64,000 nucleotides of DNA, taken from the NCBI GenBank assembly GCA_000004695.1, contig CM000154.2, positions 224,001 through 288,000 of the forward strand. The letters are read 5' to 3'. Below, one piece after another: positions 1-64,000 of the stretch. The first letter of the stretch is position 1. Each line of letters opens with the position of its first letter. Below the pieces are notes generated by a model, which did no database searches, was not told the origin of the DNA, and was given only the letters and a program-made list of their open reading frames with translations. The stretch is from Dictyostelium discoideum (Eukaryota). The translations under genes and the position numbers were made by a program.

Positions 1-3000
1 CATTAAATAATAATAATAATATTTCACCATCATTATCATCGTCATCATCATCATTATTAAATACACCAAATAAAAGAAATTCAATTCAACTTTCAAAATC
101 AACTTCATTTGAACAACAAAATCAACAACAACAACAACAAAATTTATTATCACCAAATAGTTATAGAAATTCAATATCATTTAGTAAATCACCATCATTT
201 GAAGGTAGTCAATCAACTGGATCATCAAGATCAATATCACCAATTTCATCACCAATTAAAAATAGTACTACTGGCAATAGTAATTTATCAAAATCAACAT
301 CTTTTGAAAAGATAGAAGCTAGTAATACTACTAATAATAATACTATTATTATTGCAGAAGAGAGTAGAGTTATTGAAAAAATAGTCGAAAAGATAATTGA
401 AGTTGAAAAGATAGTAGAAGTTGAAAAGATAGTAGAAGTTGAAAAGATAGTAGAAGTTGAAAAGATAGTAGAAGTTGAAAAGATTGTTAAAGTTGATGAT
501 ATCGAAAAGCTAACAAATTTACAAGATCAATTAACTGAACAACAACAACAATATCAAGAGAAATCATTGAAATTGGTAAACTTGGAATTGGAATTACAAG
601 AAAAGAGTAATCAACTTGTTGATAAATCTAATCAACTTTCAACAATGCAAGCAACCAATTCAGAGTTAATGGAAAAGATTGGCGGATTAATGAATGATCT
701 AACCGATATTCCAACTCAAGATATTAAAGAGAAAGATGAGATAATTGCAAATCTAAAGATTGAGAGTGAAAAGAATTTAAAATGCTTTCAAGATGATTTC
801 AATGCTTTACAATCTCGATACAGTCTTACCATTGAGCAAACTAGTCAATTGCAAGATAGAATTAAGCAATTAATAAATGAATTACAAGAGAGGGATGATA
901 AATTCATTGAGTTTACAAACTCATCAAATCAATCATTGGCTGATAACCAACGTGTAATCGACCAATTAACCAATGAGAAACAATCAATAACTCTACAATT
1001 ACAAGATCAACAAGATATAAAAGAAAAGGAATTTCAATTTGAAAAACAACAATTATTAAGTCAAATTGATTCAATCACAACAAACATTCAAGAATATCAA
1101 GATAAATTCAATAATTTACAACAAGAATTCAATACTCAACAAACTTTAAATCAACAAGAAACTCATAGATTAACTCAACAATTATATCAAATAAATACAG
1201 ATTATAATGAAAAACAAACTCAATTACAATCGGAAATTAAAGATAATCAAACTATAAATGAACAATTAAATAAACAATTATCAGAAAAAGATAAAGAAAT
1301 TGAAAAACTTTCAAATCAACAAGAACAACAACAAGATGAAAAAATTAATAATCTTTTATTAGAAATTAAAGAAAAAGATTGTTTAATTGAAAGAATTAAT
1401 CAACAACTTTTAGAAAATATTGATTTAAATTCAAAATATCAACAATTACTTTTAGAATTTGAAAATTTTAAATTAAATTCATCAAAAGAAAAAGAAAATC
1501 AATTAAATGAATTACAAAGTAAACAAGATGAAAGATTTAATCAATTAAATGATGAAAAACTTGAAAAAGAAAAACAATTACAATCAATTGAAGATGAATT
1601 CAATCAATATAAACAACAACAATTAAGCTCAAATTCAAATATTGATCAACAATTACAATCTACTATTATTGAATTATCAGAATTAAAAGAACAAAAAGAA
1701 TTAAATGATTCAAAATTAATTGAAAAAGAAAAACAATTACAACAATTACAACAAGAATTTGACCAACTAAATGAAAAAAATCAAAAAGATCACCAAGATC
1801 AATTAGAATTACTTGAAAAACAATTAAAACAATTACAACAAGAATATGATCAATTAAATGAAACTAATCAATCAATTGAAAATCAATTAAATCAACAAAA
1901 TTTAATTAATAAAGAGAATTTAAATGAAAAAGAGCAAGAATTACTAAAATTACAAAATCAATTAAATCAACAAATTGAAAAGATTCAATTTGATCAACAA
2001 GAATTTTCAAAACAAAATTCAATTAATATTGAATTAGTAAATGAAAAAAATGAAAAATTAATTCAATTACAACAAGATTATGATCAATTAAAACAACAAA
2101 ATAGATCAAATGATGAAAAAGATGAAAATGATTTAATTGAAAAAGAAAATCAACTAAAGTCAATTCAAAATGAATTAAATCAATTAATTGAAAAGAATGA
2201 ATCTGATCATAAAGAACAACAATTAAAACAACAATCAATTGAAAATGATTTAATTGAAAAAGAGAATCAAATTCAACAATTACAATCACAATTAAATGAA
2301 CAAAGACAACAACAATCAAATCAGTTATCTGAGAAAGATCAACAATTGAATCAGTTAATTGAAAAGAATCAATTTGATCAAAAAGAACAACAATTAAAAC
2401 AACAATCAATTGAAAATGATTTGTTTGAAAAAGAGAATCAAATTCAACAATTGCAATCACAATTAAATGAACAAAGACAACAACAATCAAATCAGTTGTC
2501 TGAAAAAGATCAACAATTGAATCAATTAATTGAAAAGAATGAATCTGATCAAAAAGAACAACAATTAAAACAACAATCAATTGAAAATGATTTAATTGAA
2601 AAAGAGAATCAAATTCAACAATTACAATTACAATTAAATGAACAAAGACAACTACAATCTGAAGTATCAATTGATAATGATAAAATTTTAGAATTAGAAA
2701 AACAATTAAAACAATGTCAATCGGATTTATTGAAATTAAATGATGAAAAACAACAACAAGATAAACAATTACAAGATAAACAAATTGAATTTGATCAATT
2801 ACAATTAACTTTTAATCAATTTAAAAATGATAAAGATTCACAATTCATTCAATTACAAGATGATCAAAAACAACAATTACAATCAATCCAACAAGATTTA
2901 AATCAATTAAAACAAGAAAATCAAGAAAAAGAAAAACAACTCTCTGAAAAGGATGAAAAATTACAATCAATTCAATTTGAGAATCAAGAAAAAGAAAAAC

Positions 3001-4533
3001 AACTCTCTGAAAAGGATGAAAAGTTACAATCAATTCAACAAAATTTAAATCAATTAAATGATGAAAATCAAGAAAAAGTAAAACAATTTTCTGAAAAAGA
3101 CGAAAAGCTACAATCAATTCAACAAGATTTAAATCAATTAAAACAAGAAAATCAAGAAAAAGAAAAACAACTCTCTGAAAAGGATGAAAAGTTACAATCA
3201 ATTCAACAAGATTTAAATCAATTAAATGATGATCAAATTAAAAAAAATGAAAAATTAAAAGAAAAAGAAGAACAATTATTAAAATTACAACAAGACTTTA
3301 ATGATCAACAATCTCAACAATTAAAACAATTGGAAGAGAAATTATCTGAAAAAGAAAATCAATTACAACAATTAAAACAAGAGAATGAAATCAATCAATT
3401 GAATCAACAACAACAATCAAATGAAATTATTCAACAATTAAAAGATCAACTTTTAAAACAACAACAACAAGAACAACAAGAAAATAATAATGAAAAAGAA
3501 ATTGAAAGATTAATACAAGAGATTGAACAATTGAAACAACAACAAGAGATTGACCAATCGGAACTTAGTAATAAAGAGATTAAAATCCAAACTACTCAAC
3601 AAGAATTTGATCAACTCTCTCATAATAGATCAAAGGATCAATTACATTTACAACAATTACAACAAGAGTTGGATCAGTTGAAACAAAGTTTTGATGATCA
3701 AGATCACCAATTTAAGAAAGTAATTGATGAACGTTACAATCTTCAATTACAATTGGAACAATCAACTCTTTCAAATAATCAATTAGATCAATTATTAAAG
3801 GAGAAATTAAAACCATTGGAATTGGACTCCAATGAAAAACAAAAAACAATTGATGATTTACTTTCAAACATTTCAAATCTCCAAATTTCACTTCAAAATG
3901 ATAAAGATTTAATCTCTGAAAGAAATAATTCAATTAAAACTTTAGAATCACGTATTACTCAACAATTATCATTATTAGATGAAAAAGATAATTTAATTAA
4001 AGATTTACAACAACAAAAACAACAACAACAACAACCTCCAACTGCTTCATCATCACCATCATCATCACCATCATTATTATCCTCAACACCAACACCAAAA
4101 CCACAACGTCCAAATCAAATTGAAATTGATAGACTTGTAAATGAAATTGTAAATAGAAATCAAGATTTAATAAGAAAAAATAAAACCAAATTCTATAAAT
4201 TAGAAAATGGTGATTACATTGTAAATTCAATCATTTATAGATTATCTTTAGATGATGATAATGATTCTGATTTAATTGGTAAATATTAATATATATACAC
4301 ACATTATTAATAAATTATTTATTAACTAAATCCTATTTTTAAAATTTAATTTAGCACAAGAATATGAAAATGGTAATAGTACAACATTTGAGAAATCATT
4401 AAGAATTTTCCCATCAAAGAATACACGTCCAATATTCGATTGGAGAGCATTGTTCTTTATTGGTGCTGCTGTTTTAGCTATCTCTACTCTCTTTTCTTCT
4501 TCAAGACCAATCAAATATGAAAAACCAACTTAA
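1..4533 (+). CDS. Giant coiled-coil protein, 5' partial (begins upstream of window); exons 1..4278 and 4355..4533 joined; C-terminal tail anchor
   Basis: Frame 3 is open from nt 3 (Ser/Asn-rich, then EKIVEV x5, then >1200 aa of heptad-like Q/E/K/L-rich coiled coil). The track ORF 567..4289 is only the part after an internal TTG. The GKY-stop at 4287 coincides with a GTAAAT donor at 4279. A 76-nt AT-rich intron (4279..4354, ...tttag) joins in phase to exon 4355..4533. That exon encodes ...RALFFIGAAVLAISTLFSS-RPIKYEKPT*, a single C-terminal hydrophobic segment typical of a tail-anchored protein. Confidence 0.7.
2150..3230 (+). repeat. In-frame coding tandem repeats inside the coiled-coil gene: 3 x 171 bp (57-aa unit LIEKNESDQKEQQLKQQSIENDLIEKENQIQQLQSQLNEQRQQQSNQLSEKDQQLNQ, 2150..2660) and about 5 x 90-120 bp units (QEKEKQLSEKDEKLQSIQQDLNQLK, 2880..3230)
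   Basis: Near-identical nucleotide repeats seen directly. Minus-strand ORFs 2023..2670 and 2845..3201 are their antisense shadows. Confidence 0.85.
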
Positions 4534-4852
4534 ACATTGGTATTTTTTTTCTTATTACTTTCTTTCCTTTTTTTTTTCAATTGTACCAAATGTATATAGA
4601 GTGAAATAATATAAAAATATAAATATAAATATAAACATATATAAAAATAATAAAATATAAAATAAAATAAAATAAAATATATAAAAAAAAAAAAAAAAAA
4701 ATGAATTTAATTTCAATAAATCTAGTTTTATTTTATTAATTATTTGTTTAGAAAAAAAAAAAAATATTATTTTTATTATTTAAATTGATTACTGAATGGA
4801 TTAATTAAAAATTATTTAAATTAATTTATAAAAATGATTATTATTATTCTTT

Positions 4853-5450
4853 TTAAAATGATATATAGCCTGAATCTTCACCAACTACAACAGTTTTATA
4901 TTCATGGTAAAATGAAATAAAAAACAAATAATATAATGTAACGCATGTAATTTCACTTAATGCACATAAATTATTATATTCTTTATAATTTGTACTTTGA
5001 ACTAAATAATTTAAATTTGATTAGATAAATAAAAAAAAATTAGTATTAATAAATTAATAATAATAATTATAATTATAAAAACTTACATATTAATATGGCA
5101 ACTGTATATAAAACTGATAGTATAATTCTAAAGATAAATAATTTTGGTGCTAAAATATTTAAATGTAAATTATAATCTAAAGTAGTTGAAATTATAATAT
5201 AAAATAAACCAAAGATGAAATAGATGGCACTGAAAACTAAATGAACATTTCTAATATAATGTTGTGGGAATGAAATTACTCCTAATAATCCAATTGATTG
5301 AATTAATGCAATCAATAGACAAACTACTGAAAATGTTGAAACTAATGAATGTGGACTACATTTTTTAATTTGTAATCTGTTATATTGAAATTTGACAATA
5401 TATAAACCAATTGAAAGTATACTTGAAATTGCTAATCCAAATGTTGCCAT
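4853..5450 (-). CDS. Hypothetical 4-TM membrane protein; exon 5087..5450 plus speculative 3' exon 4853..5001
   Basis: ORF 5073..5450 (MATFGLAISSILSIGLYIV..., four hydrophobic helices). A perfect GTAAGT donor (plus 5081..5086) overlaps the apparent stop. An acceptor ...tttag at 5002/5003 opens a 49-codon in-phase frame (FQSTNYKEYNNLCALSEITCVTLYYLFFISFYHEYKTVVVGEDSGYISF*), which is unusual in AT-rich DNA. A GA-rich (plus CT-rich) non-AT island at 5590..5700 lies 140-250 bp upstream of the ATG. Confidence 0.45.
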
Positions 5451-5540
5451 TGGTAAATATTCAATTGTATCTGAAATATATGGTACTGTATCTTGATTTT
5501 CCTTTTTATTTTATTTTTATTTCATTTTATTTTATTAGTA

Positions 5541-5573
<33 letters not shown>

Positions 5574-5760
5574 AAAAAATTGTTAAACTAATTCCTTCAC
5601 ACCTTCTCATACTCATACACTTCTCTCTCAATACAACTCATCCCTTCTCAAACTTATTCTCTCTCTCTCTAACCCCACAATCTCACTTCATCTCTCCCTC
5701 ATTATATTATTATTTTTTTTTTTTTTTGTATTTCAAAAACATACGTATGGGTTTTGTTTA

Positions 5761-5920
5761 AAGTATAATATATATGAAAGTATTAGTGTGAGTGGTGTAA
5801 TGGAGGCCAATAAAAAAAATAATATTTTTTTAATCATTTTGTAGTTTTAAATAAATTAAATTATTTGAATTATTTTTTGTGTGATTAAAAAGTGATGTGT
5901 GTTAGTGTGTGGTTCAAAAA
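5761..5920. promoter_or_regulatory. G/GT-rich islands (gtgtgagtggtgtaatggagg; gtgatgtgtgttagtgtgtggttc) in otherwise AT-rich intergenic DNA; G-box (GBF-type)-like elements 230-380 bp upstream of the mccA start
   Basis: The sequence composition departs strongly from its surroundings. The motif class matches Dictyostelium G-box/CAE elements. A functional role is inferred. Confidence 0.3.
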
Positions 5921-6045
5921 AAAAAAGAAAAAAAAAAAAAAAAAAGAAAGAAAAAAAAAAATATATTAAAAAGATAAAAAAAAAAAGGGGTAAGGTTAAT
6001 TAAACGATAAGAAATTTTATTTTATTTTTTTTTTTTTTTTTTATT

Positions 6046-6085
<40 letters not shown>

Positions 6086-6144
6086 AAATGAAATTTCTAA
6101 AAGTCATTTGATCAATTCACTTTTTTTTTTAATATTACCCAAAA

Positions 6145-8443
6145 ATGTTTAGTTTAGGAAAATTGGTTAAAAAAGATGCTTTTTTTTATAGGTAAAAAAA
6201 TCTTCTTTTTTTTTTTTTTTTTAAAAATAAAATAAATAATAATAATATTGTACTAACATATTAATAAAAAAAAAAAAAAAAAAAAAAAAATTTCAAAATA
6301 ACCAACACACATTAATGATGATAATAATAACAATAATGATAATTATAATAATTATAACAATTAATTAATCAAATAATTAATAATATCTAGATATATAACA
6401 AATGTTAATAAAGATTTAAAAATTAAACCAATTACAAAGATATTAATTGCAAATAGAGGTGAAATTGCATGTCGTGTAATGAGAACAGCAAAATCAAAAG
6501 GTGTAAAAACCGTAGCAGTTTATAGTGAAGCAGATAAGAATTCATTACATGTTTCAATGGCAGATGAGAGTTATTTAATTGGACCAGCAGCAGCCAAAGA
6601 GAGTTATTTATGTGGAAATAAGATCATAGATGTAGCAAAGAGATCTGGAGCACAAGCAATTCATCCAGGTTATGGTTTCTTATCAGAGAATTCAGATTTT
6701 GCTGATCTCTGTGAGAGAGAAGGTATCATTTTCATTGGACCACCATCAGATGCAATCAAAGCAATGGGTAGCAAAAGTGCCTCAAAGGATATTATGATCA
6801 AAGCTGGCGTACCAACCATCCCAGGTTACCACGGTGAAGATCAGTCAATGAGTGTGTTGAAGAGTGAGGCTGCAAAGATTGGCTATCCAGTATTGATTAA
6901 AGCTGTTATGGGTGGTGGTGGTAAAGGTATGAGAATCGTTGAGAGAGAGGAGGATTTAGAGGACGGTGTTGAGTCCTCAAAGAGAGAGGCCACCGCATCC
7001 TTTGGTGATTCTAGAGTTTTGGTAGAAAAGTATTTAGTTCATCCAAGACATGTGGAGATTCAAGTTTTCGCCGATAGACATGGTAATTGTGTTCACCTCT
7101 TTGAGAGAGATTGTAGTGTACAAAGACGTCATCAAAAGATTATCGAAGAGGCACCAGCTCCACATCTCTCTGAGGAGCTTAGAAAGAAAATGGGTGATGC
7201 TGCAGTTGCCGCCGCCAAGGCTGTAGGTTACGTTGGTGCTGGTACCGTAGAATTCATTTTATCCGCTGATAATAGCTTCTTCTTTATGGAGATGAATACC
7301 CGTCTTCAAGTGGAGCATCCAATCACTGAAATGATCACCAAACAAGATTTAGTAGAATGGCAATTGAAGGTAGCCGAATCCCAAACACTCCCAATGGAGC
7401 AAGAACAATTGAAGATTCATGGTCACTCTTTCGAAGCTCGTATCTACGCAGAGAATCCAGATAGTGATTTCTTACCAGGTACAGGTAAATTAGCACATCT
7501 TTCAACACCAACACCATCCGATACTTTACGTGTTGAAACTGGTGTACGTCAAGGCGATGAAGTTAGCGTTTACTATGATCCAATGATTGCCAAATTGGTG
7601 GTATGGGATCAAGATAGAGAGAAGGCATTAAGATATTTAAGAAATGCTCTCGACGAGTACCATATCATTGGTCTCAATACAAACATCTCTTTCCTTAAGA
7701 GATTATCAACTCATCCTTCATTTATGGCTGGTGAAGTTGAAACTGGTTTCATCCCAATTCACAGAGAATCCTTAATGGCCCCACAAGCTCCAATGTCTGA
7801 TGATTCATTAGCATTGGCTGCCACAAGTTTACTCTTAAAAGAGATCACTCAACAAAAATCAAAAGAAGATCCAAACTCACCTTGGTCAAGTTTAGGTGGT
7901 TTCCGTATTAATCATAATTTAAAAAAACAAGTTAAATTCAATCAAAAAGATAATAAAGTTGTTGTTAATGTTGAATTCATTGGTGGTGGTGGTGCTGCTG
8001 CTAATGGTAAACATAACTTTAAAGTAACTTTAGATAATGGTAATGTCGTTGAAGTTTTAGATGCAAAATTAAATCAAAATAATGAAACTATTAGTGCTCA
8101 TGTAAATGGTAGATTCTATAATAACATTAAATCCGTCATTGTAAAGGATACTTTAACAATCTTTAATGAAGGTCAACAATACCAATTGGATATTCCTCAA
8201 GATGTTAAACCAAAAGGTGCTGATGGTGTATTGGGTTCTTTAGTTTCACCAATGCCTGGAAAAATCACTAAAGTTATGGTAAATGTTGGTGACATGGTTA
8301 AAAAGGGTCAACCAATCTTACTCATGGAAGCAATGAAAATGGAACATACTATTCGTTCTCCAATCGATGGTAAAGTTGAATCATTACCTTATAATGTTAA
8401 TGAAATCGTTGAGGATAAGAAAACTTTGGCTGTTATTGTTTAA
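6145..8443 (+). CDS. mccA: 3-methylcrotonyl-CoA carboxylase alpha subunit (biotin carboxylase plus biotinyl domain), mitochondrial; exons 6145..6191 and 6391..8443
   Basis: ORF 6479..8443 aligns closely with human MCCC1 as recalled from memory (KILIANRGEIACRVMRTAK..., GYGFLSEN, IIFIGPP, YHGEDQS, MIKAV.GGGGKGMRIV, FERDCSVQRRHQKIIEEAPAP, EMNTRLQVEHPVTEMIT, biotinylation motif AMKMEH). The frame is open upstream to 6377 with no Met. A short exon ATG 6145 (MFSLGKLVKKDAFFY-, K-rich presequence-like) ends at a GTAAAA donor at 6192. The ...tctag acceptor at 6389/6390 is in phase 2 and restores ...R YITNVNKDLKIKPITKILIANRGE. The 5' exon is inference only. Confidence 0.85.
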
Positions 8444-8620
8444 AAAATAAAAAAGAAATTAAAAAAAAAAAATGAAAAAATGGGAAAGTGGAAAATAAAA
8501 TAAAAAATAAAAAATAAAAAAAAAAAATGTTTAAAAAAAAAAAATAATAAAAAAATAAAGTGAAATAAAATTTATTTGTATATGTGTAAATATTTACTTA
8601 TTTAAAAATATTATTGAGGT

Positions 8621-8660
8621 ATGTTGGAGGGGGTGGGTGTGTGTGGTGTTTCATTTTTTT
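8621..8660. promoter_or_regulatory. G-rich element ggtatgttggagggggtgggtgtgtgtggtg (G-box-like)
   Basis: Seen in sequence. The ORF 8621..8929 through it is low-complexity poly-F and was rejected. Confidence 0.25.
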
Positions 8661-9269
8661 CATTTTTTTTTTTTTTTTATTTCCTTTTTTTTTATTTCAT
8701 TTTTGTTTTTTTTTATTTCATTTTTATTTTTGTTTTTTTTTTTTTTTTTTTTTTTTTAATTTTTTCAAATAAAATATTAATTTTATATATCTCATTTTAT
8801 TTTCATTCTTTATTTATTTATTGCAAAAAAAAAAAAATAATAATAATAATTATAATTATAATAATAAAATTAAAATTAAAATTAAAATACAAAAAGATAA
8901 TTTTTATAGTATCTTTAAAGTTTGATTAATTTTTTCTTTTTTTTTTTTTTATTTTTTTTTTTTATTATTTTTTAAAAAAATTAGGTAAGTAAATATCTAA
9001 AAATTTTCAATTATTACTTTTACTAAAAAATAACAAACGTTGGAGAAAAAAAAACAAATAGTAATGATTAGAAAATTTGTAATAAAAGATCTTCCATAAT
9101 CAATAAAATGATGTGTGTGGTTATTATCACACAATCTTAATATAAAAAAGGAAATAAAAATAAATAAATAAATAAAAAATAATAATAAAAAAAAATAAAA
9201 AAAAAAAAATAATCAAATTAAAAAAATAAAAAAAATAAAAAAACAAATATAAAAAAAACAAAAAACAAA

Positions 9270-9304
<35 letters not shown>

Positions 9305-9611
9305 TAAAAAAATAAAAAAATTAAAATCAAATAAAAAAAAAAAAAAAAAAAAAATACATGATCATGGTCGTCATCAAAATATCTATATTTTTTTAATATT
9401 AATAATCAATATATTTAAATATAGTTTTTTTTTTATTTTTTATTTTTTTTTTTTATTTGATTTTTTTCCCAAAGAGTTTTTGGTTTATTTTTGTTTTTTT
9501 TTTTTATTTTTTTTAAATTTTTTTTTTTTTTTTTTTATTTTTTTTGAAATTTTTTTTTTTTTATAAAAAAATATAAACAAAATTGATATTATCTAACACA
9601 TAACAAATTCA

Positions 9612-9646
<35 letters not shown>

Positions 9647-9762
9647 GTATATAAAATATAAAATATAAATTTAAAATATAATAGAAATAAAAAAAAAAAA
9701 AAAAAAAAAAAATAGATAAAAAAAAAAAAAAAAAAAGAAATATATAGTTTAATTTAAAAGTA

Positions 9763-13274
<3,512 letters not shown>

Positions 13275-19539: not shown

Positions 19540-19883
19540 ATGAATAAAGAAATAGAAAATTTGGAAAATTATAATTATTTAAAAAGTTGTTTAGAATTAA
19601 TTGAAACAAAATATTTTAACCAAAAAGAAGAATTTCTGAATCAATTAAAACTAGCAAATTTAGAAACAATTAATAAATTATTATATGCAATAATTAGAGA
19701 AAACATTTTTGAACAACAAAAAAAAGAAGAAAAAGAAGATTTCAAATTAATTGAAAATGAAAATTATTATTTTATTTTTAAAACTAAAAATCAATTAAAT
19801 CCAATAATGAAATTAAAAATACCAATAAACCAAGTTTATAGTTTAAATAGATTTTCAATTTCGGATTTTCCAAGTTTAATAAC

Positions 19884-19977
<94 letters not shown>

Positions 19978-21846
19978 AATAATAATCAAGAAATAATACT
20001 TGATAATTGTTTTAATTTAATTGAGTTATTTAAAGAATCAACTATGGATTATAATGAAGAATATATAAATGAATATAAAAATGAAATTGAAAATAGCATT
20101 GGTAATCAAGCATTAATAAATACAATTTCAAAATTAAATCATAATAATATTAAAAAACAATCAATAATGAATCAATATAATTCAGTAATAGATTATGTAA
20201 ATAATCAAGATCATAGTTTTGATTCAAATTTATTCTATGAACAATTATACACAAAGGGTCATTTAACTCATACATCTCCAAAAATGAGAAAAGGTTTCAC
20301 ACCAATTCAAGTTTTAAATTACTCTTCTGAATTATCAAATTTTGTTAATTTACATTTCATTGCAATTAAAAAACAATATTCATTATCATCCTCTTCATCA
20401 TTAAAAATACAAAATACTAATAATAATTCAAATTATTTAAAAGATGATGATGATGATGATAATGATGAATATTTATTCAAATATTATCCAAATTCAAAGA
20501 AATCAATAATTGAATATATGAATAAAGTTTCAATCAATTTTAATGATTATAACTATCATTTAATTCATCCATGGCAAATTGAAAATATTATCCCAACACT
20601 ATTTAAAAATGAATTATCTCAATCAATTGTAGTTTTAATTCCAATTGAAATTGCATCAGTTTGTTCAAAGCCATTAATATCTTTAAGAACTGCTGTTATT
20701 TTCCCTGAATTAAGTGATGATAAATTAATGCCACATATAAAAGTACCAATAAGTATTAATATAACATGTGCTCTTAGAACAATATCATCACAATCAGCAA
20801 ATAACGGTCCAATATTTAGTGAAATCATTAGAGATATCTATAAAAGAGAGTATCAATCATTCTTTGGTAATGAAATTAATTTTCTATCGGAAACTTATGG
20901 TTGTTGGTTCAATCCATTGGATATTAATGATAAATCTATTAAACATAAATCAATTACAAATATTTGGAGAGAAAATCCAAATATTTTACTTGAAAATATA
21001 AACAATAACAATAATAAGAATAATAACAATCTAAAATATAAAGATCATTATAAACAACAAGTAATAGTTTCATGTTCATTATATTCCATCTCTCCAATCA
21101 CTAATAAATTAATCTTGTTTGAATTAATTGATGGATTTATAGAAAATAAACAAAAAGAAAAACAATTTATTGTTCAAAACAATAGTAACAATAATATTAA
21201 TAATAATTATAATAATGATAACAACAATAGCAAAGAATTAGTATTCAATTGGTTCAATTCATATATAAGTAAACTATTGACAGTAACAATTGTATTAATG
21301 AGTAAATATGGTATTGGATTAGAAGCACATTTACAAAATACATTATGGATTATTGATAGTGAAACTTTTGAACCTGTAAAATTAATTTGTAAAGATTGGG
21401 CTGGTTCACGTTTAAATTTAAAGAGATTATCTTCTCAATCAATTCAATATAATTATAAAGAAGGTTCTATCACTATTTGTGGCGGTGGTGAAGTTGATGA
21501 ATCTATAGAAATGTATAATAAAGTACAACATTCTGTTTTTAATAGTAATATTGGTGAACTAATATTATCAATTTCTAAATATTACAATATTATGGAAATC
21601 GAAATGTGGAAATCTGTATCTTTGATTTGTAAATCCATTTTTAATAAATTAAAATTGCAACACCTACAACAAAAACAAGAACAACAACACGAAAAAGATG
21701 ATCACTTTTTAAAACAACTACAACATGATGAAAATGTATTATTTTCAAAAAATATTGATGTAAAATCATTAACAAAAATGCGTTTACAAACTGATAATAA
21801 AGAAAATATTACAACTTCAATTATTAATCCATTATACAATTTATAA
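19540..21846 (+). CDS. IucA/IucC-family (NRPS-independent siderophore synthetase-like) protein with C-terminal FhuF-like domain, 768 aa, containing a 29-residue poly-Asn insert
   Basis: Family motifs seen in the translation: EQLYTKGHLTHTSPKMRKGF (the conserved EQSL..GHP.HP.PK.R.GF region); HIKVPISINITCALRTIS (ATP-binding K...TSS.RT segment); and a C-terminal ...EAHLQNTLWIIDSETFEPVKLICKDWAGSRL segment (FhuF-like H.QN...RD..G.R signature). Single exon. The (AAT)29 tract at 19888..19975 is in frame. Confidence 0.7.
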
Positions 21847-39391: not shown

Positions 39392-39556
39392 ATGAAAAAC
39401 ATTTTTAAAGATAAAAATATTTATATTTTATCAGTTGAGAATGATCAAAGAGATAAATGTAAATCTTATTTAATTTCAAAAAAAGCTTTGGTTGAAAAAA
39501 GATTTTCAAAAAAGGTAAATAAAAATATTTTAATATTTAAAAAAACAATACATTTC

Positions 39557-39594
<38 letters not shown>

Positions 39595-42500
39595 AACATA
39601 TTTCCATTTTTTTATTTTTATTTTTTTAAAGGTGAATATTATAATAACAAGTGAAAAAACTATTTTGGAAAATAAATTTCCAGTTAATACTGCAACCAAA
39701 TTGGGTATAGAGATAATTGATTATGAAACTTTATCAAGAGATATTGAAAGATTTATTAGAAAAACTCAACCAACATCATCAAATGGTTCAACATCAACAA
39801 CAACAACAACAACAACAACAACACAAAAAGGTCAAATTGTATCATTTAAACCAACTTCATCAACCTCAACAACAACAAATGTAATTAATACAACAACAAC
39901 ATCAACAACATCAACAACAACAATTGTTGATCCAATTATATCATTAATAGTACCACCATCAGGTAGTAATAATGGATCATTTCAAATTGCAATATTTGGA
40001 ATTGGATTTTTAGCAGGAGCAGGATTTAGAATTAAAATTGGTAATGATAATGGTGGTGGTGGTGTTTTTGCAAGTAATTATGAATTTCATTCAAGTACAT
40101 CAGTTTTATGTACCATACCAAACTTAAATATTAAATGTGGTCAACAACCAATTTATGCAAGTAATGATGGTGGTAAAACTTTTGGATTTCCAATTCAATT
40201 TTTATTCTTTGACACATCAATCCATAGAATACCAACAGCAAGAGAACAAGATGGTATGGTATTAAAGAGTCAATTGGATAATTTAAAGAGAGCCATTTCA
40301 AATATTCAAACTATGGAATCAATTCTAATGAGACGTATTTCATTATTGAATGGTAATCATGATGATAGTAAATCAATTGAACAGATTTTCATTCAACAAC
40401 AAAATTTCATTGAAAGTGGTGCATCACAATTATTACTTGGTAATGGTGGTACCACCGATCAATTGTTACAAAGTCTTGAGGGTTCAGAATATTCAAGTAC
40501 AAACGATGATGGTGAAAACGATCAATCAGACGACGATGACGACAATGAAGATGATGATGATTTCGTTGAAAAGAATTCAAATCAAGTTAAAGAAGAATTT
40601 TCAGAGAGAGAAATTAAAATATTTATTTCATCACCATTTAAAGATATGCAATTGGATCGTGACCAAATTGTAAAGGTCGTAATACCAAGAATTAGAAAAC
40701 TTTGTATTGAAAGGGACATTGTATTGAGTTATGTCGATCTTAGATGGGGTGTAACAAGTAATCAATCTGAACAATCCACTGGTTTAAGTATGTGTTTGAA
40801 AGAATTGGAGAAATGTAATATTTTAATTGGTTTATTTGGTGAACGTTATGGTTGGTCATCGCAAGAGAAACAAGATCCAAAATCACAACAATTACTTCAA
40901 TCAACATTAGATCGTGCAATTCAAGATTTCCCATGGGTAAAGAATTATCGTGATTCAAGTATCACTGAAATTGAATTTCGTATGCTTTTGAACCAAAGAC
41001 AACAACAAAGAAATGGTTTCTTTTATTTCCGTGATCCATACTATCTCGAGGAGGTTAGTCAAATGGATAAAAATAATTTCGTTTCAGAAGGTCAAAGATC
41101 AAAAGAGAAACTTGAGAAACTTAAACAAGAAATCATTAAATCACCCTTTAAATCATCGGAATATCGTCGTCCAACCAATTTATCAGATGTACTCTATGAG
41201 GATTTAGAGAAATATATTGATAAAAAATATCCATCTGGTAATTGTGAATTAAAAGGTTTTGAAAAAGAACGTTTCTTACATTCAGTTTTCATTAAAAATT
41301 TAACAAAAATTTATATTACAAATGAAAATTATTTTATGGAAATTGATACTTATTTATCAGGAAGTGCTACTAGTAGTGGTAGTGGTAATAAAAGTATTTC
41401 AATTGGTTCAAGTATTAATAGTGGACTATTATCATCTTTAAAAAATAAACCAGTATTTTTAATTCAAGGTGAAAGTGGTTCAGGTAAATCATCATTAATT
41501 AGTAATTGGTTAAAACAACATAAAGAACAACATCCAGAAGATTTAGTTGTATCACATTGGATTGGTGCATCACCAAGTTCAAATAAATTTACATCAATTT
41601 TAATTAGAATTATGAATGAAATTAAAAATCAAATTGAAATTGATCAAAAGATTGCCAATGGTGGATCAAATTCCTCATCGTCATCGTCATCATCAATGTT
41701 TTCAACCACTTCAACATCTTCTGTATCATGGTTACCAGAAATACCAGATGAAACATTTGAAAGTGAAAAAATTGTTTCAGAATTCCCACAATTTTTACAA
41801 TATGTAATGTCACATCCATCATTGAATGGTAAGAGATTAGTATTGTTAATTGATGGTTTAGATAAATTAGATCCAAGAGAGAATAGTCAAGAGTTAATAT
41901 GGTTCCCAAGAAATTTCCCTCATAATGTAAAGGTTATTGTTTCATCGATTCAAGGTAGTAGACAAAGTGAGGTTCTAAAGAAGAGAGGATCTCATATTCT
42001 TTCGATTTTACCATTCACTGAAGCTGAAAGAAAATCAATGGTACGTTTATACCTTCAAAAATATGCAAAGAAATTATCAGATCAACAAGAGATTGCAATC
42101 GCTATTTCAAAATCAACAACAAATCCAAGATTCCTTCAATTACTTCTCGATGATATTTTGGTATTTGGTGATTACGAACGTTTAAATGACCGTATTAAAA
42201 CTTTACTTCGTGCAAAGAATACAAGTGAACTCTATGAAATCATTTTAGACCGTATTGAAAAAGATTATGATCCAAAAGCAAAGGGTTTAGTAAGTGAATT
42301 CTTAAAATACATTTGGGCCGGTAGAAGAGGTGTTGAAATGTCTATGCTTTCAACATTACTCTTGAAAAAGAATATCGATCCAGCTGAATGGGGTTCATTA
42401 TTGGTATTGATGGAAGCTTATATCACTTCTTCATCGGGTGTTATCTCTTTCCTTAATGATGATATTTCAAAAGCTGTCGAAAAGAAGTATATTACAACTC

Positions 42501-44500
42501 CAAAGATTGGTATTGAAATTCATACCAATTTAGCAGAGGCTTTCGAACAATCTGGTGACTTAAATGAAAGAAAGGTTGAGGAATATCCTTATCAATTATT
42601 AAAGAGTGAAAATTGGGAATCATTAAAAAATACCTTAACCAATCTTTACGTATTCGATAAACTCTATACACCAAATCATAAGGTTGATCTCATCAATTAT
42701 TGGAATGTATTGGAGAAACAAACTAAACCACCAAAGAATGCTGCAGAAAGAGATGATCCAATACCATACAATTGTTCAAATGAATTTAAGGCAATCATTT
42801 CACGTTCATTCATTCAAGCATCTGGTTTGGTAATTTCCGATGTTTGGTTTAGAGTTGCATCGTTCCTTGAAGAGTTATCTCAATTTGATGGTGCCGAAGT
42901 ACTCTACAATAAATGTCGTGAACTTTATATTAACAATTCTCAAAATATTGAAGCTGCAAAAGTTGATCGTGCAATGGGTAGAATGTATCTAACAATGGGC
43001 CAAAATGATAAATCCGATAGTAAATTCAGATTGGCACTTTCAATCTACACAAAAGAAAGAGGTCAAGAAGATATTGAAGTTGCAATCACTCTTAATCTCT
43101 TGGGTACTCTTGCCACTAATAGATGTAAATTCGATGAAGCTAAACAAATTCTCAATCAAGCTATGAACATTTGTGAATCCAAATATGAAAGCAACGTTTT
43201 ACTCATTGCTGATATTGCCTATAGTTTGGGTTCAGTTTGTTTCGTTGAACCAAATCGTAAATTAGAGGTTGCTGAAGCTTACTTTGCAAGATCATTAGAA
43301 TTAACTGAATCAAAAGTTGGTGATATGGATGTTGCTTATGCTCGTATTTTAACTCGTTTAGGTTCATTGAATATTGAAAAGGATACCTATGCCGATGCAG
43401 AGGCATTCTTTAAAGCTGCCCTTAAAATCTATGAAGCTAGATTGGGTATTGATCATTCTAGAGTTTCTCAAATTCTTAGACATATGATTTCCCTCTATGA
43501 GGTTCAAGAAAACTATAAAATGGCTGAACAATGTTGTATCAGAGCTTTGGCAATCACAAAGAAAATCTATGGTAACTCTCATAATCTTGTATCGGCCACT
43601 CAAATCCGTCAAGCTTTATTATATAATTCAATGAATAGAAAACAAGATTGTCTCAATCTATTGAATGAAGTTAAAGTTACAAGAGAGAAAGAATTTGGTC
43701 CTGATCATAAACAAGTTAAACATATTATTGATTTAATTAAAGAAATTGATAAACCAATCGTACCAAAAGCTCCACCTCCACCACCTCCATCATCATCATC
43801 GCCATCTGCTTCATCACTTTTAATGAAATCAATTACTTCATTACCAATTGTAAATGGTCAAGCAGTTCTATCTGTTCCAAAACCACCAGTTTCCAGAGGA
43901 CCAAATGGTATCCCAATCCCACCACCACCTCCACCAACAATTAAATTGTACACAAACATGGTATCACTTCAAAGTGTTATGAAACAAAATGTTGGAAGAA
44001 TTCCAGTTGCTCAACCAACTTCATTCAATTCTCCAGTTCAACCACCTTCACCTCGTACTCAACAAGCTATTCAACAAGGTCAACAACAACGTCAACAAGT
44101 TCAACAACAACAACAACAAGTTCAACAACAAATGTCTCAAAAAGTTTCATCACTACAACAACAACCACAACAACAACAACAACAACAACCATCACAAGGT
44201 TATGGTAATCGTCAAAATACTCCATTATTCCAACAACCAATTTTCCAACAACAGTTCCAACAAAATCGTATACAACAACCACAACAACAACCACAACAAC
44301 AAGCTTATGTTGGTGATATGTTGGCTCAATTTGATCAACAAAAACTTAAACGTGTTCAAAATGCAAATGATCGTAGTGGTGCTTCTCAAATCGTTGAAAA
44401 TTTAATTGGTAAAAAGAAATGTAGTAAACCAGTTTCACTTGTAAATAAAGGTTATATGGAAGAATCAAATCAAATAGATATGGGTGCTCTATTTGATTAA
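39392..44500 (+). CDS. Large STAND NTPase: BRCT-like N-terminus, IPT/TIG domain, TIR-like (DUF4062-type) domain, NACHT P-loop NTPase, kinesin-light-chain-type TPR repeats, Pro-rich / poly-Gln tail with WH2-like motif; exons 39392..39514 and 39632..44500
   Basis: Walker A GESGSGKSSL. Walker B LVLLIDGLDKLD. Downstream TNPRFLQLLLDD helix. TPR blocks (AEAYFARSLEL..., AEAFFKAALKIYEARLG..., AEQCCIRALAITKKIYG...). The N-terminal of the NACHT is EREIKIFISSPFKDMQLDRDQIV...RDIVLSYVDLRWGV...CLKELEKCNILIGLFGERYGWS (TIR/DUF4062-like). IPT/TIG-like segment PIISLIVPPSGSNNGSFQIAIFGIGF...IPNLNIKCGQQPIYASNDGGKTFGFPIQFLFF. BRCT-like NIYILSVEND...KCKSYLISKKALVEKRFSKK | VNIIITSEKT...KLGIEIIDYETL is split by a 117-nt in-frame A-rich intron (GTAAAT...tttaaag) that the track reads through as KKKKKKKKKK. 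C-terminal PPPPPPSSSS...IPIPPPPPPT, poly-Q, ...QQKLKRVQ. Confidence 0.75.
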
Positions 44501-58087: not shown

Positions 58088-58350
58088 TGTAATAAAGCTT
58101 GTTAGCTTTATAAATATATAATTAATAATTATATAATTGAATAATACTTTGTTATCTTTATTTAATATTAGTTTATATTTATAATATTCAATATTGTTTA
58201 TAAAATTATTCTTTAGTATTTATATTATTTATAATGAGTTGACAGTATTATTATTATTATTATTATATTATTTAAATGTGTGTCAACTATAATTAGTAAT
58301 GTAATATGCATATTTAATATCTATTAATTTTATAGAGTAACTTTATTACA
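58088..58350 (-). mobile_element. Long terminal repeat (3' LTR relative to the minus-strand element), 263 bp, bounded by inverted termini TGTAATAAAG...CTTTATTACA. A polypurine tract AAAAGGGGGGG (plus 58353..58363) is immediately internal
   Basis: 5'-TG...CA-3' ends with a 10-bp terminal inverted repeat. The PPT abuts the LTR edge exactly as in Ty3/gypsy and retroviral elements. Confidence 0.6.
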
Positions 58351-58947
58351 TATCCCCCCCTTTTAGTTGAAAAAAATTTTTCAATCTTTTAATATAAAAC
58401 ACATCATGATTTTTAATATTATCCAATACTAATTTGAATTTTAAATCGCTAACTCTCTCGTGTACTTTGAAAAGACCTTCCCAAGATTTATTGAGCTTTA
58501 CTGGACCAACAGTGGATTGTAAATAGACATAATCTCCTACTTGAATATTTGAACGAGAAACTTTTTTATTAATTTGTGATAATTGGTCTTTACCAAGATT
58601 ATCCTTAATGAGACAAGGACGTTTGAGGTTATTATTTACAATTTGGGCGAAATTATGAGCAAAATCTAATCTTGATAAATTTGTACATGGATTTCTTATT
58701 AATGGTTGAATTGAGGTTATTTGTGATTTAATTATTGAATTCTCTGTTTGATTTAATGATATTGATTTTAATGGTAAATTCGATGTTATTGGTGAATCTA
58801 TTGGTTCTTGGAATAAGAATTCTGGAATATCGTAATCTATTGGTAGTTGTTCTTCAATAGTTGGATACGATTTGATTGATAGTATATGATGAGAATTAAA
58901 ATTTTCAATTAAATGATCAGTATCTGTTAATAATTCTGATTTTGATG

Positions 58948-58978
<31 letters not shown>

Positions 58979-60010
58979 TGAATAATCAGATACTGTTTTA
59001 AATATAGTTTGTATACATGGTTGGGTTTCTTTAGATATTAATTTGGTACCAACATTGAATTCAAGATTCTTAATGATCATTTCTTTAAAATCAATGACTA
59101 AATTTAATCCAATTATTGTATCAATGCCAAATATACAATCAATTGATGTATCATTATCTTTAACAACATTAACTTTAACTCTAGCGAATGCTTTACCTAA
59201 TTTAATTGTTGTGTTACTTATTCCAATGATTTTGATTTGATTATTTGATGCTGATTTAACAGAATATTGTTCATTTTCAATCTTTAATTTTAACTTTTTA
59301 GCAATACTTTCCCAAACAATAGTAAGTGATGAACCAGTATCAATCAAACCTCTAACATTTTTATTATTTATTAATAAAGCTGCATTCATACTATCTATTC
59401 CAATTGAATTAATTGTACTATTATTGACCATTGTAATTGAATTAGTTCTATTATTGTAATTGTTATTATTATTTTTATCTTTTGACCAACACTCTTGAAT
59501 TACATGACCTTTCTTTTTGCAATATTTACAAAATTTTGTGATTGAATTTACTTGATTTTGTGGTGCTTTATAAGGGGATGATTGTGGTGACATTTGTGGT
59601 GATCGATTATAATATTGATTTTTAAAAATTGGTGTTGAAATTTCTTCAGATTCAATTGATTGTTGTTCGTTTTGAGATGTAACATATTGAGGGGATGTTG
59701 CAGAATAACCAGAACCCGAACCTAGATATCTTTGATTACCAAATTCTTGCAACGTCTTTGCAACTAATTGACCAGTGTACATTGATCTACCTTTGATACG
59801 AATTGAACCATCTTCACAAGACTTTGCAATATCTATTGCTCTTTTTAATGATTTTGGTGCACATTTTGTAATTTTAATACCCAATTCAGTACCAACAGCT
59901 GAATAAAACAATTGTATTTTAAACTTTTCTGAAATATCAACTGCTGAACATTTTGATAGAAATTTACCAATTAATATATCTAATGTATTGTATTTATATT
60001 CTCCCAACTT
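58346..60010 (-). mobile_element. Internal region of an internally deleted Ty3/gypsy-type LTR retrotransposon (DGLT-A-like, tRNA-associated): Gag (retrotransposon-gag fold, CCHC knuckle CKYCKKKGHVIQECW), aspartic protease (LIDTGSSLTIV), then directly an integrase C-terminal segment (GDYVYLQ...WEGLFKV...HDVFYIKRLK). RT/RNaseH/IN core absent
   Basis: Track ORF 58346..60238. No YxDD/RT motifs occur anywhere in 630 aa. The N-terminal 42 codons (60112..60238) are antisense of tRNA-Gly and beyond the gap, so they are spurious. The ORF terminates inside the PPT/LTR start. Confidence 0.6.
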
Positions 60011-60111
60011 GNNNNNNNNNNNNNNNNNNNNNNNNNNNNNNNNNNNNNNNNNNNNNNNNNNNNNNNNNNNNNNNNNNNNNNNNNNNNNNNNNNNNNNNNN
60101 NNNNNNNNNNN
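60011..60111. other. Assembly gap (101 N)
   Basis: Run of n. Presumably hides the 5' LTR and the target junction with tRNA-Gly. Confidence 0.95.
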
Positions 60112-60120
60112 ATATAAAAA

Positions 60121-60191
60121 GCGTATGTGGTCTAGTGGTATGATGCATCCCTGCCACGGATGCGAACTGGGTTCGATTCCCAGCATACGCA
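60121..60191 (+). tRNA. tRNA-Gly (anticodon GCC), 71 nt; ex-B box GAACGTAGGTTCAATTCCC at 60225..60243
   Basis: GCGTATGTGGTCTAGTGGTATGATGCATCCCTGCCACGGATGCGAACTGGGTTCGATTCCCAGCATACGCA. Acceptor GCGTATG/CATACGC. Anticodon stem CATCC/GGATG with loop CTGCCAC. T-arm CTGGG/TTCGATT/CCCAG. The same layout as metazoan tRNA-Gly-GCC. Confidence 0.85.
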
Positions 60192-60598
60192 TAATTTTCC
60201 ATTTGTTCAATTTGTTCGATTATAGAACGTAGGTTCAATTCCCTAAAAAATCATGAGTCTGTATTTATATACAGAGTTGCACATCTCTAGAAAAACAATT
60301 TTATTTTTAATAATATAAAAAAACCTCTCAAACAAAGTCAAACCAGTAAAAAAAAAACCAAAAACAATCAAACAACCCAAACACTATTCAAAAATCAATT
60401 AAAAAAACAAATAATCAACAAACCATAATAAATGGAAACAATGTGGGTAGTTCAAACATTCCACTACAAAAATCCAGCCAAATTCCAATTTAAAAAAAAA
60501 AAATTTAAGAAAAAAGATACAATCGAGTTTTTTTTTTTTTTTTTTTAGTAATAAATTAAATAATTTTATTTTATTTTTATTTTATTTTTTTTTATTTT

Positions 60599-63500: not shown

Positions 63501-64000
63501 TGTTGCATTGATTGTATTGTTTTTTGATTTAATTCAGATTCTTTAAATAATTTAACCAAATCCATCTTTTCAACATTTCCACTATCTGCACCACCTAATA
63601 ATAAACTTTTGCTTTCGTCATCACCACCATCTTTTGATGATAATTCAATTTTATCAGTTATCATATATTTTGAAGGTTCAACTGAAACCTCTTGCATAAA
63701 TTCTGCCAATGGTTGGTTTGGTAATGGTGCTAATCCAATCGATGAGAAATAAGGTAATAAATTATTTAATTCTCCAAAGTAAATTAAATTACCACCTTCA
63801 CCTAAAATTAAAATGTCATCGAATAAATTGGTTAATTCAACCGATGGTTGTAATAATGATACCATAACCGATGCTTTTGCCTCTTTGGCAATGGTTTTAA
63901 CTTTTGATATTACATTATAGGATGTTGCTGAATCCAAGCCTGTCGAAGGTTCATCCATTAATATTAAATTTGGTGATCTTTTTGTAAATTCATTAGCAAT
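60599..64000 (-). CDS. Full-size ABC transporter, G subfamily (PDR-type, NBD-TMD-NBD-TMD), 5' partial (continues beyond window end)
   Basis: The window holds the end of NBD1 ([16 protein letters not shown]..., Q/H loop), TMD1 (six helices), NBD2 ([24 protein letters not shown]; ABC signature [31 protein letters not shown]) and TMD2, with stop at 60599. The frame is open to nt 64000. One n at 62552 gives X. Confidence 0.85.
   Translation of the reverse strand: [1133 protein letters not shown]

Follow-up and report, generated by a model that had tools for sequence, protein, structure and literature searches.

We analyzed a 64,000-nucleotide stretch of the Dictyostelium discoideum genome (contig CM000154.2 of assembly GCA_000004695.1, positions 224,001 to 288,000 of the forward strand; hereafter, the window), focusing on a single gene that encodes a member of the IucA/IucC family of nonribosomal peptide synthetase-independent siderophore (NIS) synthetases (Table 1). 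NIS synthetases join citrate-like acids to amines. The gene consists of one uninterrupted ATG-to-stop open reading frame (ORF) of 768 codons (its coordinates in Table 1 take in the stop codon) and lies in DNA whose guanine plus cytosine (GC) content, ~20%, is usual for Dictyostelium. Its product is identical to an entry on CM142511.1, a 5.29-Mb chromosome of assembly GCA_054883475.1. Bacterial homologs cover the protein from approximately residue 5 to residue 768; the whole enzyme is therefore contained in one exon, and the preliminary description of this DNA, made by a model from the letters and their translations, was right to call the gene intronless.

Sequence profiles and structure agree on the family. 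The matches to Pfam IucA_IucC (PF04183) and FhuF (PF06276) lie well above the respective cutoffs of 25 and 25.2 bits, bearing out the identity first proposed for the gene. An AlphaFold2 (AF2) model of the protein has a predicted local distance difference test (pLDDT) score of 84.4 and a predicted template modeling (TM) score of 0.87, with low confidence confined to low-complexity inserts. Searched against the Protein Data Bank with Foldseek, this model returned NIS synthetases exclusively (AsbB, DfoC, DesD, AlcC, NcdF, SbnC, IucC, AcsD and IucA), all matched over their full length, with target-normalized TM scores of 0.75–0.81 and E values of 1e-21 to 3e-31. Solved members of the family (AsbB 3to3, SbnC 7cbb, DesD, AlcC, AcsD, IucA and IucC) share both the full-length fold and the catalytic E-x-H-x-Q-N...D constellation with the Dictyostelium protein; however, they are of other functional types and only 11–16% identical to it in structural alignments. 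No FslA-like (type A-prime) enzyme was among the solved structures returned by Foldseek.

The active site is intact. When 324 NIS units were aligned to a single hidden Markov model (HMM), eight residues proved invariant in every unit (Q346, R383, K401, R413, G591, H597, N600 and D619), and all eight are present in the Dictyostelium protein. The preliminary description had named two outcomes that would refute its reading, a lack of significant profile matches and a loss of the catalytic motif residues; neither was observed. Near-invariant residues are likewise kept, including E595 (320/324), Q599 (323/324), S381 (311/324) and T409 (321/324), along with H241, H244, K248 and R477. A phmmer alignment pairs E595, H597, Q599, N600 and D619 with AcsD residues E442, H444, Q446, N447 and D464, which we take from structural work on AcsD to be the catalytic histidine and the Mg/ATP ligands. 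The three motifs by which the gene was originally recognized are found at residues 234–253 (EQLYTKGHLTHTSPKMRKGF), 401–416 (KVPISINITCALRTIS) and 597–626 (HLQN...KDWAGSRL).

The C-terminal portion of the protein had been described as ferric-reductase-like, a label that our analysis does not uphold. The FhuF ferric-siderophore reductase is a stand-alone protein with a C-terminal 2Fe-2S cysteine motif (FhuF_C). Beyond PF04183 and PF06276, no Pfam family matched the Dictyostelium protein at E ≤ 1, the FhuF_C Fe-S domain included; the PF06276 half carries the H-x-Q-N/D residues; and the PF04183–PF06276 pair was recorded in each homolog gene examined. These observations rule out a separate ferric-reductase module. 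Here, "FhuF" is the Pfam label for the normal catalytic C-terminal half of NIS synthetases.

Table 1. Features of the NIS synthetase gene, other features of the window, and related loci in amoebae and bacteria. Residue numbers (aa) refer to the window protein.
Sequence	Feature	Position	Strand	Basis or remark
Window	NIS (IucA/IucC-family) synthetase gene, 768 aa, complete, single-exon	19540..21846	+	ORF, Pfam, AF2, Foldseek
Window	N-terminal domain, aa 1-115, helices then beta-sheet	19540..19884	+	87% homolog occupancy (alignment A1); AF2-confident
Window	(AAT)30 microsatellite, 30 Asn, aa 116-145, lineage-specific loop insertion	19885..19974	+	homolog occupancy 0.12; pLDDT <50
Window	Pfam IucA_IucC domain, aa 231-484	20230..20991	+	E 2.8e-41, 142 bits
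Window	EQ..GH..H(P/T)..K.R.GF motif, aa 234-253	20239..20298	+	E234, Q235, G240, H241, H244, K248, G252 kept; P245 to T
Window	Low-complexity Ser/Asn/Asp insert, aa 283-311	20386..20472	+	occupancy ~0.5; pLDDT <50 at aa 289-306
Window	Nucleotide/acid-binding segment S381-x-R383-T384...K401...T409-x-x-x-R413-T414, aa 381-416	20680..20787	+	aligned to SbnC 7cbb, AsbB 3to3
Window	Asn-rich insert, aa 485-500	20992..21039	+	occupancy 0.13; pLDDT <50 at aa 490-501
Window	Asn-rich insert, aa 546-566	21175..21237	+	occupancy 0.31; 13 residues missing in ortholog
Window	Pfam "FhuF" region, aa 571-754, C-terminal catalytic half	21250..21801	+	E 2.3e-17, 64 bits
Window	Catalytic E595-x-H597-x-Q599-N600...K618-D619, aa 595-619	21322..21396	+	phmmer alignment to AcsD 2w02
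Window	1702-aa ORF with DUF4062	39392-44497	+	weak NACHT/AAA_16 match, TPR repeats
Window	Gag-type aspartyl protease ORF and adjoining ABCG-type transporter gene	58349-60238 / 60602-63958	- / -	
D. citrinum L082	NIS	1944-4004	-	
D. citrinum L082	NIS	4318-6462	+	
D. citrinum L082	Lipocalin	8030-8753	-	
D. citrinum L084	NIS	7013-9688	-	
D. citrinum L084	NIS	10001-12049	+	
D. citrinum L084	Lipocalin	5861-6577	+	
Cavenderia fasciculata L083 (GL883029.1)	Three IucA/IucC genes	1-12091		
D. purpureum L085	DICPUDRAFT_50166	10001-11974		
D. purpureum L085	Small GNAT acetyltransferase	12218-12791		same strand as DICPUDRAFT_50166
L086	Compact single-NIS operon, uncultured low-GC bacterium	3996-10595		
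L087	Compact single-NIS operon, uncultured low-GC bacterium	2050-9869		
L054	Compact single-NIS operon, uncultured low-GC bacterium	153-6572		

The gene is fully integrated into its host chromosome. It is surrounded by genes for methylcrotonyl-CoA carboxylase alpha, an ankyrin protein, a RabGAP, a cyclin, an Erf4-like protein, RanBP1, Mlh1 and TatD, and the same gene order is found around its ortholog (P0001, locus L081; labeled D. discoideum by NCBI) in a second assembly, GCA_054859385.1. The GC content of the gene is 20%, and that of its third codon positions (GC3) is 0.104, equal to that of the neighboring host genes. Because the family is overwhelmingly bacterial, contamination or mis-assembly might be suspected, but its probability is negligible: the composition is that of the neighbors, an (AAT)30 tract is typical of Dictyostelium, eukaryotic genes occupy both flanks on a 5.3-Mb chromosome, and an independent assembly agrees, which together rule this explanation out. 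As reported earlier for this region, no hydroxylase or decarboxylase partner gene is found among the window neighbors of the NIS gene, and a search of the 64-kb window yielded neither a second NIS copy nor a pathway partner. Elsewhere in the genome, on a 6.36-Mb contig, the 78-residue AX4 protein DDB_G0280231 (P0069) matches window positions 21604-21843 (residues 689–768) and is 79% identical to the last 80 residues of the window protein; its sequence suggests a shortened duplicate of the window gene, or a pseudogene fragment derived from it.

Low-complexity inserts account for most of the recent change in the gene. The preliminary description correctly noted a poly-Asn insertion but gave its length as 29; the run comprises 30 residues, and all 30 codons are AAT. 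The ortholog lacks 26 of these 30 residues as well as a 13-residue Asn-rich stretch, and the two copies differ chiefly by such insertions and deletions. Because the Asn tracts sit at gaps of 24 homologs (occupancy 0.12–0.31) and low AF2 confidence is confined to the tracts, we consider them recent microsatellite expansions in surface loops, consistent with the proposal that the run is a later, host-style addition.

Comparison with the syntenic ortholog over 717 aligned codons (94% amino acid identity) yields synonymous and nonsynonymous divergences of dS 0.10 and dN 0.025 and a dN/dS ratio of 0.255; the gene is intact and under purifying selection. We therefore weighed, and find very improbable, the idea that it is a decaying or catalytically dead relic kept by chance or for a non-enzymatic role. 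Such a history might explain three low-complexity insertions including the 30-Asn run, two substitutions at conserved sites (P245T and R618K) and the truncated AX4 copy described above. It might also explain a difference just past codon 15, where an A-run in the ortholog is one base shorter and breaks the frame (L081 ~10190-10240 versus window 19540-19590), and the ortholog annotation instead uses an upstream exon plus an intron. This 1-bp difference could, however, be a homopolymer assembly error rather than a real lesion. Moreover, the insertions fall in loops that are gapped in homologs while the rest of the protein folds confidently, and the intact 768-codon frame, the dN/dS ratio and the retention of every invariant catalytic residue all argue against a relic.

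The gene was previously regarded as a lone copy in an amoeba, but this proved incorrect: several divergent, often clustered paralogs exist across Dictyostelia. An exhaustive HMMER search of 1.8 billion representatives identified 480 relatives at E ≤ 1e-3, the best of them 29–36% identical. A word-indexed protein search was swamped by Dictyostelium poly-Asn words, such that the full protein and the alignment profile gave only the ortholog P0001, and a search of the same kind with a clean 168-residue catalytic core found no match; the family was recovered by the exhaustive search alone. The amoeba paralogs are 25–37% identical to the window protein and to one another. They form at least three divergent lineages, and their clustering differs from species to species.

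Two paralog types, P0026 and P0041, are present in D. citrinum (P0174, from a second assembly, is 93% identical to P0041). They are ~36% identical and lie head-to-head, ~300 bp apart, in both assemblies, a layout that suggests a shared bidirectional promoter. In each assembly, a lipocalin gene is found within ~1.5 kb of the pair. Mammalian lipocalin-2 binds siderophores, and the adjacency in D. citrinum may or may not be meaningful. Cavenderia fasciculata, an early-branching dictyostelid, carries a cluster of three IucA/IucC genes within 12 kb, encoding a 722-residue protein, a 1576-residue gene model that is probably fused (DFA_12326) and a 696-residue protein (DFA_12327). In D. purpureum, DICPUDRAFT_50166 is followed ~250 bp downstream by a small GNAT acetyltransferase gene, whose product may act as a tailoring partner unless its position is coincidental. 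Three EukProt proteins complete the amoeba set.

To place these sequences, we built a neighbor-joining tree of 286 NIS units, 270+ of which are bacterial. Eleven amoeba sequences and one further AT-rich sequence form a clade with 82% bootstrap support, nested within bacterial diversity. When the alignment was recoded with Dayhoff-6 classes, which damps AT-driven amino acid bias, 81 of 100 replicates recovered a clade made up of the 11 amoeba sequences and no others. The dictyostelid root separates Cavenderia (group 1) from Dictyostelium (group 4); their joint presence in one clade therefore means that acquisition predates the Cavenderia/Dictyostelium split. Most simply, these sequence relationships would reflect a single acquisition that preceded the dictyostelid radiation, with duplication thereafter. 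The sister group in the tree consists of low-GC uncultured bacteria (a Silvanigrella metagenome-assembled genome [MAG], a Patescibacteria MAG and metagenome contigs), and the closest group by raw distance is a single-NIS clade of Bacillaceae (Mesobacillus, Halalkalibacter and Alkalihalobacterium). A search for viral carriers as a transfer vector found none.

With the amoeba clade nested among bacteria, GC3 matched to that of the neighbors and a recent (AAT)n expansion in a loop, these data favor the bacterial origin and subsequent amelioration originally suggested for the gene. An alternative is that the gene is an old eukaryotic one, or was exchanged with fungi that have type A-prime NIS enzymes (Rfs in Mucorales; Physalacriaceae). 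Such fungal enzymes exist (PMC10700112) and stand outside our tree, and the amoeba clade is old and deeply divergent. We nonetheless judge this origin improbable. Among the tree-nearest sequences, L054, P0009 and P0104 are bacterial by gene context and P0110 is a Patescibacteria MAG by its source name (P0027 and P0081 are outside this check), and the best-scoring groups in the exhaustive search are Bacillaceae, Actinomycetota and metagenomic bacteria. A published survey (PMC3188802) also places the gene in a bacterial clade and describes it as unrecognized in characterized plant, animal and fungal genomes.

That survey (Sucgang 2011) bears directly on priority. Its Table 2 lists an IucA_IucC gene, DDB_G0294004, as a candidate for horizontal gene transfer (HGT) from bacteria with function "Unknown", a listing that, according to the survey, was carried over from the 2005 genome paper (Eichinger). 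Each HGT candidate is reported there as embedded in a bacterial clade and as having a D. purpureum ortholog; for the IucA_IucC gene the entry is "no model". DDB_G0294004 shares its Pfam family, its organism group and the reading as a siderophore-synthesis gene of bacterial origin with the window gene, and very probably represents that gene, not a paralog, in AX4. The core claim is thus already known, with a Dictyostelium IucA_IucC gene in print as an HGT candidate since 2005/2011, and the description of the window gene as a bacterial-origin siderophore synthetase is a correct rediscovery rather than a novelty. The survey records one such gene and dates its transfer only to "before the radiation of group 4", whereas the family described here is multi-copy and reaches back to the Cavenderia split. 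Candidates for siderophore-related HGT also appear in a 2026 preprint about D. giganteum. In the literature searched, we found no product and no biochemical, metabolite, phenotype or expression study for the Dictyostelium NIS gene or for any amoeba paralog.

Subfamily profiles give an indication of the chemistry. Among NCBIfam models, the best match to the window protein is FslA (NF041038, rhizoferrin), with 140 bits (E 8.5e-41), ~2.5 times the scores of SbnF (57) and SbnC (56); FslA, the Francisella rhizoferrin synthetase, has the same two-domain architecture. It is also the best NCBIfam model for all amoeba paralogs and bacterial relatives tested. The named relatives are bacterial, comprising Alkalihalophilus/Alkalihalobacterium, Amycolatopsis, compost metagenomes and JGI "D-ornithine--citrate ligase" proteins, and one close bacterial relative carries this last name from its source. 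The best reference-genome matches are to Bacillaceae, Rubrobacter, Planctomycetota and others. Based on this subfamily resemblance, we infer that the amoeba enzymes are FslA-like citrate-amine ligases, with citrate as their probable substrate.

The genomic context of the bacterial relatives inspected is that of siderophore systems. Most of their reference-genome loci contain two adjacent NIS genes from different clades. At one (L006), the NIS pair is followed by an MFS_3 exporter gene and a gene with the fold of pyridoxal-phosphate (PLP)-dependent ornithine/diaminopimelate decarboxylases or racemases, a layout shared with the sfa loci for staphyloferrin A and with the fsl loci of Francisella. 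Several proteins of 1200–1320 residues (P0002, P0003, P0006, P0007 and P0025), bacterial where named, are tandem NIS-NIS fusions of two full units, presumably the fused form of such paired genes. Loci with a single NIS gene cluster in separate clades. In the bacteria nearest to the amoebae in the tree, these are compact operons that encode an MFS_3 exporter, a Peripla_BP_2 protein, two FecCD proteins, an ATP-binding cassette (ABC) ATPase and one NIS synthetase; L054 is similar, and in L086 the ABC ATPase and NIS synthetase are fused into one 864-residue protein. No tailoring enzyme is encoded in the tree-nearest single-NIS operons examined. Because these operons hold export and uptake genes only, the absence of hydroxylase and decarboxylase partners near the Dictyostelium gene is unremarkable and is what its subfamily predicts.

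Three characterized systems offer points of comparison. The window protein is FslA-like but, with its score far below the equivalog cutoff, no ortholog of FslA. The partner of FslA is a PLP decarboxylase, FslC (PMC10700112); no such gene is found near the amoeba gene. SfaB/SfaD-type citrate-ornithine ligases are approached through bacterial relatives (27–30% identity), a comparison made without Staphylococcus aureus reference sequences; in these relatives the NIS genes are paired and accompanied by an MFS exporter and a PLP-fold enzyme. Some amoeba paralogs also form adjacent pairs, whereas the window gene stands unpaired. For an NIS gene that is alone among housekeeping genes, the nearest analogy in function is Rfs of Rhizopus delemar. 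This eukaryotic NIS synthetase acts by itself and produces a siderophore from citrate and a diamine with no pathway partners, according to the accounts of Carroll 2017 in PMC10700112 and PMC9226013; rhizoferrin synthesis in Rhizopus requires Rfs alone (PMC10700112). Rfs is a fungal enzyme and is compared here by its description.

Taken together, we assign a probability of approximately 0.7 to the reading that the window gene encodes a functional FslA-like NIS ligase of ancient bacterial origin. The results above establish the family, the fold, the active-site residues, selection, chromosomal integration and the clade, as well as the siderophore-type loci of bacterial relatives; activity, the use of citrate and iron chelation as a role are inferred. 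In our model, which takes its mechanism from the established chemistry of the NIS family, Dictyostelia would have received an ancestral gene from a bacterium at a time before Cavenderia and Dictyostelium split; the gene would then have duplicated into several paralogs, with the window copy becoming fully host-like. The enzyme, of the citrate-using type A-prime, would bind ATP-Mg and adenylate one carboxyl of a small acid, for which citrate is the most probable candidate. The acyl-adenylate would then be attacked by an amine, which could be a diamine (for instance putrescine) or an amino acid (for instance ornithine), and the product would be a polycarboxylate with amide links, resembling rhizoferrin or staphyloferrin A. 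No neighboring tailoring genes would be needed, because both substrates are primary metabolites.

Several points weigh against this reading. The score of 140 bits falls far below the FslA equivalog cutoff of 1000, and the protein is only ~27–35% identical to any bacterial relative; the substrate is therefore assigned by subfamily resemblance only. Two strongly conserved sites have changed: P245, a proline in 318 of 324 units, is threonine, and R618, an arginine in 309 of 324, is lysine. The window contains no adjacent exporter or ferric-siderophore uptake gene, and no Dictyostelium-made siderophore is reported in the literature searched. With regard to origin, the tree was built by neighbor joining only and leaves out the reference type A-prime enzymes (FslA, LbtA, Rfs, SfaB, SfaD) as well as fungal sequences. 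Support for the sister group is 24–32%, and its contigs are of low GC (28–35%), so that compositional attraction is possible; for this reason, we name no donor.

Some of these same points bear on a different product. The enzyme might be an active ligase that makes something other than an iron chelator, for example a signal in development or chemotaxis, a conjugate of a polyamine, or a compound that acts against bacterial prey. At least three paralog lineages, 25–37% identical and clustered differently in each species, exceed what a single siderophore would need; one paralog adjoins a GNAT acetyltransferase gene and another pair a lipocalin gene; and the missing siderophore report and the lack of linked uptake or export genes in the window fit as well. 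In contrast, all bacterial loci inspected are of siderophore type, with an MFS_3 exporter, FecCD/Peripla_BP_2 uptake components or an FhuF-like protein. Every invariant position of the active site is preserved, and we found no known non-siderophore role for the subfamily. We consider such a product unlikely, although it is the likeliest of the alternatives weighed here, and we favor the FslA-like, siderophore-type ligase.

The window contains two further features apart from the NIS gene and its neighbors (Table 1). A gag-type aspartyl protease ORF, probably part of a retroelement, adjoins an ABCG-type transporter gene; this pair lies ~37–42 kb downstream of the NIS gene, with no evident link to it. 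A long ORF with DUF4062, a weak NACHT/AAA_16 match and TPR repeats recalls STAND/NLR architecture.

More tentatively, we speculate that social amoebae may use an expanded, partly clustered set of bacterial-derived citrate-amine ligases to make a secreted polycarboxylate amide of their own, whether siderophore or signal; the window singleton would then perform one step or represent one variant of this chemistry. Glorin and similar dictyostelid acrasins are amides of glutamate with ornithine, and we know of no established biosynthesis for them. The speculation stays compatible with our data because the active sites have been preserved, purifying selection acts on the gene and paralog clusters lie near a lipocalin or a GNAT gene. 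Should the product be a siderophore, it could serve in competing with or starving bacterial prey, and its synthesis would, to our knowledge, be the first biosynthetic siderophore pathway in Amoebozoa. The gene is more than a stray: it belongs to an NIS family of long standing, present in multiple and partly clustered copies, maintained by selection and with its active sites preserved, and its closest resemblance is to rhizoferrin-type systems that work with one enzyme. A siderophore-like metabolite produced by the amoebae themselves would be directly testable in a genetically tractable organism and relevant to how a phagocyte competes for iron with bacteria, be they prey or pathogens.

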